A stretch of 64,000 bases of DNA from the NCBI GenBank assembly GCA_041674845.1, contig JBAYUY010000001.1, positions 33,962 to 97,961 of the forward strand, read 5' to 3'. Origin of the DNA: Candidatus Shapirobacteria bacterium. Its GTDB lineage: Bacteria > Patescibacteriota > Microgenomatia > UBA12405. This document shows positions 25,758 through 62,150 of the stretch, piece by piece. Every line of letters begins with the position of its first letter. Position 1 is the stretch's first letter. Under the pieces are notes generated by a model. It searched no databases. It was not told where the DNA came from and saw nothing but the letters and a program-made list of their open reading frames with translations. The translations under genes were made by a program, and so were the position numbers.

Positions 25758-25934
25758 TTATTTTCCACCACGACTTTGGGTGCGAAAGCGTTGAAGAAAG
25801 GATGGCCCATTTTTACTCATCATGTTTTTGTTGAGAAAATTGTTGGTGGGTTGAAATTTGGGTGGTATTTTGACAATTAGAGGTTTGGTTGATTGTTCGT
25901 TTTGAAGGGTGTTTTTGACTTGTGTTTTACTCAT
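25758..25934 (-). CDS. 58-aa basic peptide, unlisted ORF coupled to the EpmA-like gene
   Basis: Hand-translated MSKTQVKNTLQNEQSTKPLIVKIPPKFQPTNNFLNKNMMSKNGPSFLQRFRTQSRGGK; its ATG overlaps the upstream stop (ATGAGTAA). Confidence 0.4.
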   Translation of the reverse strand: MSKTQVKNTLQNEQSTKPLIVKIPPKFQPTNNFLNKNMMSKNGPSFLQRFRTQSRGGK

Positions 25935-26679
25935 ATGATTCTATTATACTCAATAATCGGTCAATGCCAAGTCCGATTCCAGAACAAGGTGGTAATTTGC
26001 TGCAATTGTTGATAAATTCGGAAGAATAGGGGTGAGTAGGCAGATTGTTGTCTTGACGATATTTTTGTTCATTTTTAAACGCTGTTTTTATTGATTTTGA
26101 ATTAGTATTTTCTTCACATCCGTTGGCAATTTCTATGCCATTTATGTATAGTTCGAAACGTTGATTGGGAACGGCCAATGGTGATAAAAAAGATGGATAA
26201 CCGGTGATAAAAATGCCTATATCTTTTGGTAAATTGGGTTCAATTTCGTTTAAAAAAAATTGATTAAAATCGGGTTCATTGTCAAAATTTGTATTATTTA
26301 ATTTAAATTCATCAAATTTTAGATTGGGTAAAAAATGGTTAATTAGGTTTTGGGTAGATAACTTTAAATCATCGAGATTTTTGTTAATCTCGTACCATTC
26401 GAGCATGAGAAATTCGTTGGAATGTAAAGGGCCAGTGTTTTCTAAATTACGAAAACAATGAGCAATAGAAAAACAATTTTGTTTGTTTTTGGCCAAAAAT
26501 TCTTTTAAAGCAAATTCAGGGGAGGTGGGGAGATACCAATTGTTTATTTTAAATGTATAAAGATTAGGTTCGAGGGGTAGAGATTCGTTTAGATAAGGGA
26601 TTTCAACTTCGGTAAAATTTTTGCCCCACAAATATTGACGAATTGATTTAAGAAAGTTGGCAGTGGTAGTCTGGGTCAT
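25927..26679 (-). CDS. epmA: EpmA/PoxA-like class II aaRS-core ligase (EF-P lysyl-transferase family), short
   Basis: CFRNLENTGPLHSNEFLMLEWY (motif 2); FELYINGIEIANGCEE; PPCSGIGLGIDRLL (motif 3). These closely parallel E. coli EpmA. Confidence 0.7.
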   Translation of the reverse strand: MTQTTTANFLKSIRQYLWGKNFTEVEIPYLNESLPLEPNLYTFKINNWYLPTSPEFALKEFLAKNKQNCFSIAHCFRNLENTGPLHSNEFLMLEWYEINKNLDDLKLSTQNLINHFLPNLKFDEFKLNNTNFDNEPDFNQFFLNEIEPNLPKDIGIFITGYPSFLSPLAVPNQRFELYINGIEIANGCEENTNSKSIKTAFKNEQKYRQDNNLPTHPYSSEFINNCSKLPPCSGIGLGIDRLLSIIESYE

Positions 26680-27397
26680 AGCAAAGAGGGTATTTTTTTG
26701 TAACTGATAAATATTTATCGATAACGTGGTCTAACGGATCTTTAAGTGATCCAATAGAAATGGTTGATTCACAACAACCATAAAATTTTCCATTAGATTG
26801 TAGTGAAAATATATTACATCCAAAATCTTTGGGAGGATAGCAGGGATAATTGTGGCGAATTTCTTTGACTTGATCTCGTGTTAGTGAACCGAGACGGTCG
26901 GTCAAATAAGTTTTGTGTAAATTAAATATATTTAATTTATCTTTATAGGGATATGAATCTTTGGTAATTAAATAAAAAATTTCAATTGGAAAACCTAAGC
27001 TTAAAGCCTTTTTAACAAATCTTTTGGATTTAGAAAAATTGCCTTTTCCTCGGTTGTAGTCATGAATGTTTTTTGGTCCATCAAAAGAGACGATTAGTTG
27101 GCAGTTTTGGGGTGATTTAATTTCGTCCAATTTGTCAATCGTACCATTGGTAATAATTGTAATAAATATGTTTTGATCGATTAAGTTATTGACTAGGCTA
27201 GGAAAGTCGGGGAGGGTAAAAACTTCGCCACCACAAAAAATGATTGATTTTAGTTTGGTAATTTTTTGGTAATTGTCGACAAAATCTAAAATTTGTTCAT
27301 TACTGAGAATTGTTTTGGGTTTTTTGGTATAACAATATAGACAGGACAAATTGCACAATTCTAATGGAGAAATGTAGATATTTTCCAACAAAGACAT
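26648..27397 (-). CDS. radical SAM protein with C-terminal Cys-rich (SPASM/twitch-like) region
   Basis: CNLSCLYC CxxxCxxC motif; C-terminal GCNIF...NGKFYGCCES...PLCYDPDYHC; 32-nt overlap with the EpmA-like gene. Confidence 0.8.
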   Translation of the reverse strand: MSLLENIYISPLELCNLSCLYCYTKKPKTILSNEQILDFVDNYQKITKLKSIIFCGGEVFTLPDFPSLVNNLIDQNIFITIITNGTIDKLDEIKSPQNCQLIVSFDGPKNIHDYNRGKGNFSKSKRFVKKALSLGFPIEIFYLITKDSYPYKDKLNIFNLHKTYLTDRLGSLTRDQVKEIRHNYPCYPPKDFGCNIFSLQSNGKFYGCCESTISIGSLKDPLDHVIDKYLSVTKKYPLCYDPDYHCQLS

Positions 27398-27577
27398 TTA
27401 TTTTAGTTTGGTTGATTCTTTGTGCTCGGATTTTTTCTTGCACCAACGACAGTACTTGGTGAATTTGAGCTTGTCGGGAGTATTCATCTTGTTCTTTTCA
27501 GAAAGATAGTTTTGAGCGCCACATATGCCACACAAAAGGGCGATAAGTATGCGAGGTGTTTTTTTTGCTTTTGCCAT
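27398..27577 (-). CDS. rpmG: 50S ribosomal protein L33 (unlisted, 59 aa)
   Basis: Hand-translated MAKAKKTPRILIALLCGICGAQNYLSEKNKMNTPDKLKFTKYCRWCKKKSEHKESTKLK; its stop abuts the radical SAM start. Confidence 0.85.
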   Translation of the reverse strand: MAKAKKTPRILIALLCGICGAQNYLSEKNKMNTPDKLKFTKYCRWCKKKSEHKESTKLK

Positions 27578-27592
27578 AGAGGGTATTATAGC

Positions 27593-27889
27593 TTAGTTGT
27601 CTTTTAATTTCTTGATTTGTTTTTCAACGGCCTCAATTAGGTCAACAAGAGCTGATTCAAAAATAATATGTGAAGTTTCGGCATATATATTTTCTTTGCC
27701 AGGTAGGTTCATATCAAAATTAATAGTGTATTTCTCATATTTGTCTTTTTCGACTTTGACGGAAGCTATTTTTTGTTCTGGGGAATAATGAGATAGAAGT
27801 TTTTCAAGATGAAGATTAATTTTTTCGTCGATTAATAAGCGATTACCAGCAGAAAGTATAAGATTGTCGGCAATGATTTGGATATTCAT
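27593..27889 (-). CDS. hpf: ribosome hibernation factor (HPF/RaiA family, short form)
   Basis: 98 aa; MNIQI...NRLLIDEKINLHLEKL...VKVEKDK... S30AE pattern. Confidence 0.7.
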   Translation of the reverse strand: MNIQIIADNLILSAGNRLLIDEKINLHLEKLLSHYSPEQKIASVKVEKDKYEKYTINFDMNLPGKENIYAETSHIIFESALVDLIEAVEKQIKKLKDN

Positions 27890-47608: not shown

Positions 47609-47683
47609 TCCCCTGTAGCTCAATGGTAGAGCGCCCGCCTGTTAAGCGGATGGTTTGTGGTCCGAATCCACACGGGGGAGCCA
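47609..47683 (+). tRNA. tRNA-Asn (GTT)
   Basis: Manual fold: TCCCCTG/CGGGGGA acceptor; anticodon loop CTGTTAA; CCA encoded; C27:A43 mismatch. Confidence 0.85.
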
Positions 47684-49255
47684 ACTTGGATTTGCAGGTC
47701 GCAAATCATCATATTTAGCCATGATTTCCGTATACTTTTGAGGTTCCAGCCAACCTTTATATTTACTGTCCCAGTTTTGTTTATTGGCCAGTACTCCATA
47801 TTCAGGTTTTAGGTCAACTTCCAGCATTTTGTCAGGTTTAAGTAATAGGTTCTCGCCAACAGTTAGAAGTATCATTTGTCTGTCTTCTCTAGTACCTATT
47901 TTAAACTTATTCTGACACGCCTTAGCAAAATCAATAGTCTTTTCTACTTTTACTCTCCAGTCCTCCAAATCTTCATCTGTATTTGCTAATTTTGACTTAA
48001 TTTCATTTTTTTCCTTCTCAAGATTTTGTTTCTTTTCCTTGTAAGTCGCATCGTCTATACTTTCATCCAACTTCATGTCCAAAAGCCTATTTAATCGGAT
48101 TTCTACCTTGGATAATTGGGATTGTTGATTTTTTAGTTTTTCCTCCTTAAAACCAGACTCATCCTTGTGAACAGCAGATAACCATTTATTTGACCAGTCA
48201 ACAAAATCTTGGTCGGGAGCTAAACTGGCTAAAATTTTATCAATTTGATTTAAAATGTCATTCTCGGTCAGTGGTTTTGAATGGCATTGTATATTTTTAT
48301 TTTTTCTAGTGCAGTAATAATAAACATAGGTAGCTGTTCTGCCAGTACCCTTGTAATACTTTATTTTTTGCGTTGCCGTCATTGCAGAGCCACACTCAGT
48401 ACAGCGAAATAGACCAGTCAAATCAAAAGTATGTTTTCTGGCAATCGGTTTTCCAAACTTGCCCAAAGCTCTTTGAACTACATCAAACTCTTCCCTGGTA
48501 ATCATTGGTGTGTGGGATCCTTTAAACCAGTTTCCAGAGTTCTTAGGCCATTCATACTCGCCATAATAAAATGGTTTTGTTAATAAATTGTAAAATGTTG
48601 ATTGAGAAATGACTCTTCCTTGCTGACTGGTTAATTTCCATTCTTCTGAAACTTCACGGTAAACTTCGCATGGCTGTTTCCCTGAAATTACTTCAGCAAA
48701 CATTCTTTTTACTAAAGGAAACCTTTCCTCATCAATAACTATTTCCTTAAACCCCTTTTTGCCAGTTGGTGTATTTTTGTATCCTAGTGTGGCAGGAGCA
48801 GGATACCAACCCATCTCCGCCTTAGTTTTCATACCTCTCTGACTATTTTTACCAAGATCGTCTATGAATTTTTGTGCCATACCAAATTCTAAGGACATCA
48901 ACAGACTGTCTTCGTTTATTTGAGAATACGTTTTACTAGGGGTAATGATTTCCACCTTCAAGTCTTTCATTGCCCAACTGATAGCACCACCATCAACGGG
49001 ATTTCTTGATAGTCTGTCTAATTTCCAGCATAAAATACCTTCGGCATCACCCTTTGCTAGTCCAGACATCATTTCTGCGAATAGTGGTCTGCCTGGAGCT
49101 TTTGCAGACATTGACTCCTCAAAAGTTTCAATAATTGTTAATTCAGCCTTATTGGCGAACTGTCTAAGTTCTTTAACCTGAGAAGGAAGAGATAACATTT
49201 GTTTATCCTCACCTTCTGACGATCTCCTGCAATACATGTATACTCTTTTTTTCAT
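47642..49255 (-). CDS. large serine recombinase
   Basis: YCRRSSEGE nucleophile motif; recombinase domain; zinc ribbon CTECGS...YYCTRKNKNIQC; coiled-coil. The last 14 codons are encoded by the tRNA-Asn 3' half. Confidence 0.85.
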   Translation of the reverse strand: MKKRVYMYCRRSSEGEDKQMLSLPSQVKELRQFANKAELTIIETFEESMSAKAPGRPLFAEMMSGLAKGDAEGILCWKLDRLSRNPVDGGAISWAMKDLKVEIITPSKTYSQINEDSLLMSLEFGMAQKFIDDLGKNSQRGMKTKAEMGWYPAPATLGYKNTPTGKKGFKEIVIDEERFPLVKRMFAEVISGKQPCEVYREVSEEWKLTSQQGRVISQSTFYNLLTKPFYYGEYEWPKNSGNWFKGSHTPMITREEFDVVQRALGKFGKPIARKHTFDLTGLFRCTECGSAMTATQKIKYYKGTGRTATYVYYYCTRKNKNIQCHSKPLTENDILNQIDKILASLAPDQDFVDWSNKWLSAVHKDESGFKEEKLKNQQSQLSKVEIRLNRLLDMKLDESIDDATYKEKKQNLEKEKNEIKSKLANTDEDLEDWRVKVEKTIDFAKACQNKFKIGTREDRQMILLTVGENLLLKPDKMLEVDLKPEYGVLANKQNWDSKYKGWLEPQKYTEIMAKYDDLRPANPSWLPRVDSDHKPSA

Positions 49256-61818: not shown

Positions 61819-61985
61819 TTTTATATTTATGTTTATGTTTGTACTTAGGCATATTATACGTCGTTCAAAATTAAAAATAATCGGTATTTTTCAGCTACTA
61901 TTGTCAATAGGGCTAAATCGACATATAATTACCTCAACAATCAGTTTGCCTAAACTCTACAGCAATGTGGGGCATGGTAATAAAT

Positions 61986-62030
61986 CCGAGTTAAGGGGCG
62001 CAAGCTCTCTGTTAGCTTTCCTTAACTCGG
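61986..62030 (+). other. strong hairpin within a relatively GC-rich non-coding stretch
   Basis: Perfect 11-bp stem CCGAGTTAAGG / CCTTAACTCGG with a 23-nt loop; further stems (GATTC-GAAA-GAGTC, CTCTC...GAGAG) up to about 62110. Confidence 0.5.
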
Positions 62031-62150
62031 TAATATGTCGAAAGATATATTGGATTGATTCGAAAGAGTCTCTCCGGTTAGCAGAGAGCTTTTGCCTTTC
62101 TGCTGGCATACCACTGATCAATTTATTATTTGAGAGCTAATAAATTGACT

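Follow-up and report, generated by a model that had tools for sequence, protein, structure and literature searches.

A probable twitch/SPASM-type radical SAM enzyme paired with an EpmA-like ligase in Microgenomates-type bacteria: a candidate modification module of the translation apparatus

Elongation factor P (EF-P) and eIF5A need modification at a single loop residue in order to rescue ribosomes stalled on polyproline, and few such chemistries are known to us, namely beta-lysylation, rhamnosylation, 5-aminopentanolylation, and hypusination. In the first of these, EpmA ligates beta-lysine to EF-P, usually in partnership with EpmB, a KamA-type, pyridoxal phosphate (PLP)-dependent lysine 2,3-aminomutase of ~340 aa; in E. 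coli and Salmonella, the EpmA/EpmB(/EpmC) pathway is responsible for the (R)-beta-lysylation of EF-P Lys34. For about half of the EF-Ps of bacteria, no modification is known (PMC11388002). Here we describe a locus within a 64,000-nucleotide stretch of DNA (the window) from a metagenome-assembled genome of Candidatus Shapirobacteria, a member of the Microgenomates within the Candidate Phyla Radiation (CPR); the source contig (JBAYUY010000001.1) is 949,187 bp in length, with a G+C content of 34%. The locus encodes an EpmA-like ligase together with a radical S-adenosylmethionine (SAM) enzyme that is not of the KamA type and instead appears to be of the twitch/SPASM type. These two genes constitute a translationally coupled core module that is present only in Microgenomates-type CPR bacteria, while it is only in the Shapirobacteria lineage that a gene for ribosomal protein L33 and a small open reading frame (ORF) are found alongside them.

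The ORF listing and the sequence place the pair within a minus-strand gene run that reads HPF, L33, radical SAM enzyme, ligase, and small ORF. The genes of this run and the features within them that are discussed below are as follows.

26648..27397, minus strand: radical SAM enzyme, 249 aa (PF04055, E=4.9e-19)
27332..27355, minus strand: CxxxCxxC motif CNLSCLYC (C15, C19, and C22), predicted to hold the SAM-cleaving [4Fe-4S] cluster; invariant in alignments A1 and A4
26660..26818, minus strand: C-terminal Cys-rich region (C194, C208, C209, C239, and C246), candidate site of a single auxiliary Fe-S cluster, from the family alignments
25927..26679, minus strand: EpmA-like class II ligase derived from lysyl-tRNA synthetase (LysRS), 250 aa, without an anticodon-binding domain (PF00152, E=4.6e-27)
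25972..25974, minus strand: codon of Gly236, equivalent of the Ala298 gate of E. coli EpmA (CSGIGLGIDR in the window, CSGVALGVDR in E. coli)
27398..27577, minus strand: ribosomal protein bL33 of the four-Cys zinc-ribbon type, 59 aa (Pfam PF00471, E=4.8e-16)
27593..27889, minus strand: HPF/YfiA-like short ribosome hibernation factor, 98 aa (Pfam PF02482, E=1.7e-5, 25.9 bits with a cut-off of 23.7)
25758..25934, minus strand: small basic Pro-rich protein, 58 aa, with the C-terminus FRTQSRGGK (hidden Markov model [HMM] built from alignment A2)

The original prediction, made from the window sequence, had described the last four genes of this run as abutting or overlapping, and the ORF listing and minus-strand sequence bear out all three junctions: the TAA stop of L33 abuts the ATG of the radical SAM gene with no gap, the radical SAM and ligase reading frames share 32 nt (26648-26679), and the start of the small ORF overlaps the ligase stop as ATGAGTAA at 25927-25934. 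HPF is the first gene of the run, located 15 nt 5' of L33, and it is also found 5' of L33 in most of the related loci. Its NCBIfam match (TIGR00741) amounts to only 17.6 bits, and L33 scores 51 bits with TIGR01023, which is over the 24-bit cut-off of that model.

Related loci were collected from a one-genome-per-species scan (77 orthologous loci), a scan of metagenomes for which divergent members served as seeds (a further 80), and look-ups of remote representatives (a further 13), of which 151 had sufficient flanking DNA to be informative. The ligase adjoins the radical SAM gene in 149 of these 151 loci. In 140 it lies 3' of the radical SAM gene in the same orientation, the two being a median of 47 nt apart and often overlapping, and in the other nine the two genes are divergently oriented (L063, L066, L068, L070, L092-L094, L107, and L108). 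The two exceptions to the pairing are L075, whose contig stops 1.9 kb downstream, and L086. A conserved gene order had been expected, and it was found: L33, the radical SAM gene, and the ligase follow one another in 120 loci, 64 of them in species-representative genomes and 56 on contigs from metagenomes, a recurrence that argues against a chance arrangement. At least 17 loci from other lineages carry the pair without L33. Other arrangements include a same-strand series of an alpha-2-macroglobulin (A2M) gene, the radical SAM gene, the ligase, and a DHH gene (L080), a pair divergent from a lipase gene that is itself followed by L33 (L087), and a pair with a pseudouridine synthase gene (PseudoU_synth_2) close by (L091). 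Outside the L33 lineage, no gene beyond the ligase was found to recur with the radical SAM gene as a third member. As the radical SAM gene and the ligase are kept together across at least five gene arrangements, we conclude that they form a functional pair. Moreover, since these contexts are independent and share no other recurring gene, the functional unit consists of the radical SAM enzyme and the ligase, with L33 and HPF as lineage-specific context. It should be noted that the radical SAM and ligase genes are separated by insertions of ~0.7-3 kb at L004, L005, and L006. In addition, many contigs carrying the same operon at 60-70% protein identity (L007, L009, L014, L017, L020-L022, and many more) are clearly Shapirobacteria-like, even though they are titled 'uncultured Gammaproteobacteria bacterium' or 'Candidatus Methanoperedens sp.', which are probably placeholder or wrong labels.

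The radical SAM enzyme belongs to an uncharacterized, very small, and CPR-restricted family, which at E<=1e-30 comprises only 20 clusters in a profile search of 1.84 billion representatives. PF04055 was its sole match in a Pfam scan, and the Pfam SPASM model did not match it. Its listed NCBIfam matches include NirJ, ScmE, sactipeptide maturases, HpnH, MftC, N_Twi_rSAM, viperin, MoaA, and QueE, but their scores of 30-50 bits compare with cut-offs of 170-650 bits, such that no curated family model was passed. An AlphaFold2 model (pLDDT 83) had its best Foldseek matches with SkfB, anSME, MoaA, SuiB, BlsE, viperin, and EpeE. Models for KamA or EpmB were absent among the 25 listed of 68 NCBIfam matches, and neither the 50 listed Foldseek matches nor a PDB sequence profile search included a lysine aminomutase or KamA. 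Thus, a KamA/EpmB identity was ruled out by all three approaches, as well as by the length of the protein (249 aa as opposed to ~340 aa), and the expectation of a twitch/SPASM-type partner in place of a KamA-type one was supported. The window as a whole is likewise devoid of a KamA-like gene, as the only two ORFs with a CxxxCxxC motif are both of non-KamA type. The second of these, at 1116-2114 on the minus strand, encodes a 332-aa radical SAM protein with PF04055 and Fer4_12 domains, whose core is 25-30% identical to the family described here.

In a 17-sequence alignment, the invariant cysteines of the radical SAM enzyme are C15/C19/C22, C55, C99, C194, C208, C209, C239, and C246. When remote members are added, the conserved auxiliary cysteines shrink to C-x13-CC ... 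C-x6-C, which nevertheless retains all five cysteines of the C-terminal region (C194-x8-G-x4-CC ... C239-x6-C246) family-wide. The enzymes of lineages such as that of L066 have an additional CxxCx4CxxCC, a fuller SPASM-like motif. The reduced motif of the window enzyme relative to these lineages suggests that it is a SPASM-type family member trimmed to a twitch-like form, and both sequence and model are consistent with a compact twitch/partial-SPASM-type enzyme that is predicted to bind the corresponding clusters. Orthologs at L066 (5977-6894), L068, L070, L063, L074, L075, and L064 are ~305-366 aa in length and have the C-terminus CxxCx4CxxCC ... C. The nearest sister enzymes (P0260 and P0265, E ~1e-27 to 1e-32) fall outside of the family and are found in phage-like or unrelated surroundings with no ligase. 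At L079, L083, and L084, a sister radical SAM family occurs among many small ORFs on phage-like contigs that have no aminoacyl-tRNA synthetase (aaRS)-like gene.

The ligase was expected to be EpmA-like, and this description stands with qualifications. PF00152 spans residues 7-246 of its 250 residues, which leaves no N-terminal OB domain, and its best NCBIfam family is TIGR00462 (genX/EpmA) at 189.4 bits, with LysRS second at 103 bits. The closest PDB sequences are those of Salmonella and E. coli EpmA (3g1z/3a5z, at ~1e-23), and the top Foldseek matches of its AlphaFold2 model (pLDDT 86.6) are GenX/EpmA 3A5Y and 3A5Z (TMq 0.85), followed by the catalytic domains of LysRS; 3A5Z is E. coli GenX/EpmA in complex with EF-P. 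What did not hold is full membership, as the scores lie below the trusted EpmA equivalog cut-offs (189.4 as opposed to 286.9 bits for TIGR00462 and 165.8 as opposed to 264 bits for NF006828) and the position of Ala298 is occupied by Gly. Five further ligases linked to the radical SAM enzyme in various lineages also have EpmA as their best family ahead of LysRS, at 178-282 bits and all below 286.9; at 281.8 bits, the L066 ligase almost reaches the cut-off. Across 64 ligases, residues S76, E78, R100, E102, H108, F112, E116, Y118, E244, E251, G296, G300, and R303 vary little or not at all. These 13 represent ATP-binding, lysine-binding, and motif 2/3 positions in E. coli EpmA numbering, which was based upon a reference sequence that agrees with the PDB alignment fragments. 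By sequence, the adenylate-forming active site of the ligase is intact, with all of its lysine-binding residues kept.

Ala298 is described as the backbone-selectivity gate of EpmA in a 2026 preprint, which reports that an A298G mutation flips the preference of the enzyme from (R)-beta-lysine to (S)-alpha-lysine (bioRxiv 10.64898/2026.07.07.736966). The equivalent residue is Gly in 61 of the 64 ligases linked to the radical SAM enzyme and Ala in the other three (L066, L067, and L068), which predicts alpha-lysine, or something closely analogous, as the substrate activated by the majority of them. A substrate of the alpha-lysine type also fits with a partner that is not an aminomutase. The Ala-gated ligases of L066 and L068 are divergently oriented from radical SAM enzymes of ~305-366 aa with the fuller SPASM-like C-terminus.

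Our favored explanation, which we would credit with an even chance, is that the pair constitutes a module of two enzymes that lysylate and tailor a protein of the translation apparatus. The data suggest that the twitch/SPASM enzyme takes the place of EpmB. The ligase would use ATP to activate alpha-lysine, or a close alpha-amino analog, and would pass the activated lysine to an amino group of a translation-apparatus protein. Because of the homology with EpmA, the most likely acceptor is EF-P, modified at its loop lysine; by this analogy we regard it as the prime candidate, although our confidence in it falls a little short of even. The radical SAM enzyme would supply an obligatory second step, the radical tailoring of the protein-bound lysyl-lysine or of a neighboring residue, in the way that anSME and SkfB act upon protein or peptide substrates. 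Alternatively, it might modify the amino acid prior to ligation, but a protein-bound residue seems a more likely substrate than free lysine. In the Shapirobacteria lineage, the pair lies in an operon together with the genes for HPF and L33 and one for a small basic protein specific to the lineage. Taken as a whole, the proposal that Microgenomates-type CPR bacteria perform an undescribed modification of EF-P or another translation protein, in which a Gly-gated ligase adds alpha-lysine and a twitch/SPASM enzyme remodels it, is a tentative one that we hold as possible rather than probable.

Several observations weigh against this explanation. Neither the window nor ~170 related loci contain an efp gene; tblastn searches of the window, 78 genome loci, and 93 further loci using E. 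coli and B. subtilis EF-P sequences gave no match, which is uninformative as each locus is ~1% of a genome and only ~1.5 matches would be expected. One member of the radical SAM family (L086) has no ligase within 8 kb. All six of the tested ligases fall below the EpmA cut-off (178-282 as opposed to 286.9 bits) and the window ligase is missing ~55 residues corresponding to E. coli positions 125-180, for which reasons its acceptor may be a different one. The Ala-gated ligases of L066, L067, and L068 indicate that the alpha-lysine prediction is not uniform, and the effect of the gate was measured with E. coli EpmA, not with a ligase linked to the radical SAM enzyme. Lastly, the chemistry ascribed to the radical SAM enzyme is wholly inferred.

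An alternative, which we consider unlikely but better placed than those that follow, is that the small basic protein, rather than EF-P, serves as the acceptor or substrate. Searches by tblastn, a motif scan, and an HMM place this ORF 3' of the ligase, on the same strand, in 54 of the 61 genome loci that were informative, as well as in 39 loci from metagenomes. Translational coupling of the two genes is seen in the window and at L021, L024, and L171. Although the small ORF had been thought to be unannotated, it has an NCBI entry as hypothetical protein WC069_00365 (MFA7300754.1). Its conservation agrees with the original prediction, which would have failed with a confidently housekeeping radical SAM enzyme, a gene order that is not conserved, or a small ORF that is not conserved; none of the three was found. 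Two subfamilies can be distinguished, one ending in ...FRTQ(N/S)RG(G/S)nK and the other in ...F(K/R)PxxR(F/M)x(T/S)INRGRR, with a common C-terminal motif (F-x-T-x-N-R-G) followed by a flexible tail that ends in K or RR. The only near-invariant residues are F50, R55, and G56, and the protein is without Cys or Trp. Its 101 relatives in the databases all stand alone, at lengths of 47-73 aa and with no Rosetta-stone fusions among them, and where a source is named it is Shapirobacteria or Patescibacteria and the protein is labeled 'hypothetical'. A Pfam scan of 24 members (E<=10) returned scattered single-member matches at E>=0.02, none of which is significant. The small ORF represents a real, conserved gene family, and its features fit a lineage-specific protein that is basic and probably disordered. 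It may be ribosome-associated or serve as an accessory or alternative acceptor. A divergent bL34 was also considered, as FQPxN and FRxRMxTxN are alike by eye, and was rejected: hhalign of A2 with a five-sequence L34 alignment gave a probability of 0.3% (E=0.23 over 8 columns), and the scan of 24 members contained no L34 match. Separately, at L066 (4578-4799, plus strand), a 56-73 aa ORF rich in Lys, Arg, and Pro is located between a Nif3-like gene and the divergent ligase, and it does not match the small-protein HMM.

As the substrate of the pair, a role that its position, coupling, and conserved motif with a flexible K/RR tail would favor, the small protein could be employed in three ways. 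Firstly, the ligase could lysylate it for subsequent tailoring by the radical SAM enzyme. Secondly, the ligase could adenylate the Gly-Gly-Lys tail, which would resemble an N-acyl-lysine, and lead to Pup- or ubiquitin-like conjugation elsewhere; in this stranger variant, the tail may be taken by the ligase as its 'amino acid', with the small protein as a protein tag. Thirdly, the small protein could be similar to the precursor of a peptide that is made by the ribosome and modified after translation (RiPP), with the radical SAM enzyme as its maturase, and the peptide maturases SkfB, SuiB, and EpeE are indeed among the nearest structures. This peptide-maturation reading, which was part of the original prediction, is weakened by the confinement of the small protein to the L33 lineage, by its lack of Cys and Trp and its C-terminal K or R, and by the lack of a RiPP recognition element (RRE)/PqqD domain, which was found neither in the radical SAM enzyme by Pfam nor recurrently among the neighboring genes. 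The small protein is not RiPP-like, and its features do not fit those of an obligatory RiPP precursor. All three versions are further disfavored by the lack of an invariant Lys, with a C-terminal residue that alternates between K and R by subfamily while the lysine pocket of the ligase is unchanged, by the distribution of the small protein, as it occurs only where L33 is also linked and was not detected within +/-4-10 kb of the pair in the other arrangements (L063, L066, L068, L074, L080, L087, L091, L098, L105, L107, and others), and by the ~0.5-3 kb of inserted DNA that often separates it from the ligase (for example, insertions at L001, L002, L035, and L056).

A second and less probable alternative is that the pair targets L33 or a different ribosomal component (rRNA or tRNA, for example). 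It would then be a system for modifying the ribosome, in the manner of RimO or RimK on ribosomal proteins or of QueE and GluQRS on tRNA. Truncated aaRS paralogs such as GluQRS can modify RNA, and radical SAM enzymes modify both ribosomal proteins and RNA (RimO, RlmN, and MiaB), so general knowledge supplies precedents for both partners. The operon structure also lends itself to this idea, with HPF in the same gene run and L33 abutting the radical SAM gene in 120 loci and situated ~1 kb away on the opposite strand at L087 and L089. On the other hand, at least 17 pair loci have no L33 nearby, and its linkage elsewhere is explicable by inherited synteny in a single lineage. The enzymes themselves also speak against such a target: the ligase is nearer to the protein ligase EpmA than to any tRNA-charging enzyme, and the radical SAM enzyme satisfies neither the RimO/MiaB nor the QueE models.

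About as improbable, and if anything slightly more so, is that the radical SAM enzyme is a non-homologous replacement of EpmB, which would convert free lysine into a beta-lysine-like or differently rearranged form for the ligase to attach to EF-P. The radical SAM gene precedes the ligase and strictly co-occurs with it, as in epmB/epmA, three of the ligases retain Ala at the beta-lysine gate, and twitch enzymes that act upon small molecules (MoaA, BlsE, and viperin) are among the structural neighbors. However, the amino-acid 2,3-aminomutases known to us (those of lysine, glutamate, and arginine) are all PLP-dependent KamA-family enzymes, and the radical SAM enzyme shows no similarity to KamA and at 249 aa is ~90 residues short of EpmB/KamA enzymes, while Gly in 61 of 64 ligases would favor alpha-lysine, as it does in E. 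coli EpmA. Finally, it is highly improbable that no special system exists and that the adjacency is simply an inherited order of unrelated housekeeping genes: CPR genomes are compact and syntenic and most of the loci derive from one order-level lineage, but the pair survives inversions, moves to unrelated neighborhoods, has overlapping reading frames, and accounts for essentially all of the radical SAM family.

The surroundings of the gene run are unrelated to it, with a convergent GNAT gene and two tRNAs on the 3' side and hemerythrin, more tRNAs, and suf genes on the 5' side. No housekeeping LysRS was found in the 64-kb window. Promoter and terminator scans of the region returned counts at the level of chance. 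A sigma-70-like promoter sequence (TTGGCA, 16 nt, TATAAT; 11/12 consensus matches) occurs on the minus strand at 25943-25970, within the 3' end of the ligase; it ends 8 nt before the ATG of the small ORF, and a separate, near-leaderless transcript could arise from it. Elsewhere in the window, a 537-aa ORF (47642-49255, minus strand) encodes a large serine recombinase with Resolvase, Recombinase, and Zn_ribbon_recom domains and overlaps a tRNA-Asn gene (47609-47683, plus strand) by ~40 nt, which may mark the edge of an integrated element. A full-length Rfam LOOT RNA (RF03000) is located at 61947-62061 on the plus strand (74 bits with a gathering score of 46.4, E=4.7e-12), inside or overlapping the ORF at 61829-62140.

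The translation apparatus of the CPR is already unusual, and the pair offers a concrete and testable candidate for a new pathway in this group, which could turn out to modify a translation factor or ribosomal protein in a new way. The small basic protein would be a further unrecognized component, and one that may associate with the CPR ribosome. As far as we found in the literature, it would also be the first time that a protein ligase derived from an aaRS is seen paired with a radical SAM enzyme of the twitch/SPASM type. Literature on EpmA or EF-P together with radical SAM, SPASM, CPR, or Patescibacteria does not describe the pairing, full-text searches returned no description of EF-P modification in the CPR, and a paper on CPR ribosomes (PMC9297842) does not mention the pairing. 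If confirmed, the pairing would widen the range of acceptors and reactions for both enzyme families. The undescribed modification that we hold as possible would, if real, give bacteria with reduced genomes and oxygen-poor habitats a fourth enzymatic means of making the EF-P tip functional. Naturally Gly-gated relatives of EpmA are also of interest for the engineering of EpmA in genetic code expansion (bioRxiv 10.64898/2026.07.07.736966).

Among described systems, there are parallels in GluQRS/YadB (queuosine) and PylS/PylB (pyrrolysine), where an aaRS-derived enzyme and a radical SAM enzyme likewise cooperate to bring about a modification related to translation. These synthetase relatives are of a different class or lineage, however, and the radical SAM enzyme matches neither QueE nor PylB, so the likeness is one of logic only. 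Pup and LysW resemble the small protein in their length of ~50-60 aa, probable disorder, and conserved Gly-rich C-terminal tail, but they have no sequence relation to it, their partners (PafA/Dop and the ATP-grasp enzyme LysX) are of different families, and the small protein ends in K or RR rather than E or Q and is linked to the pair in only one lineage. The radical SAM enzyme itself resembles the twitch/SPASM enzymes (anSME, SkfB, SuiB, and EpeE, as well as MoaA, BtrN, and BlsE), as it has in common with them a CxxxCxxC core and a C-terminal Cys-rich extension, has its best Foldseek matches among them, and is similar in size to the smallest twitch enzymes. It differs in that it passes no curated model, keeps just ~4-5 auxiliary cysteines, has no RRE domain, and is partnered with an aaRS-like ligase, a combination not found in the literature searched. 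The closest counterpart of the locus is the EpmA/EpmB pathway. Both employ a LysRS-derived class II core without an anticodon-binding domain, for which EpmA is the best match by HMM and by structure, both have the full set of ATP-binding, lysine-binding, and motif 2/3 residues, and both include a radical SAM partner. In contrast, the partner here is a 249-aa twitch/SPASM-type enzyme instead of a PLP-dependent KamA-family enzyme of ~340 aa, the ligase scores below cut-off, is shortened in the window copy, and has a Gly gate in place of Ala298, and efp is linked to none of the loci examined (the window and ~170 related loci). Two of the defining features of the canonical EpmA/EpmB pathway were tested and neither was found, so the locus is not an example of that pathway but rather a conserved and apparently undescribed variant of the EpmA system.

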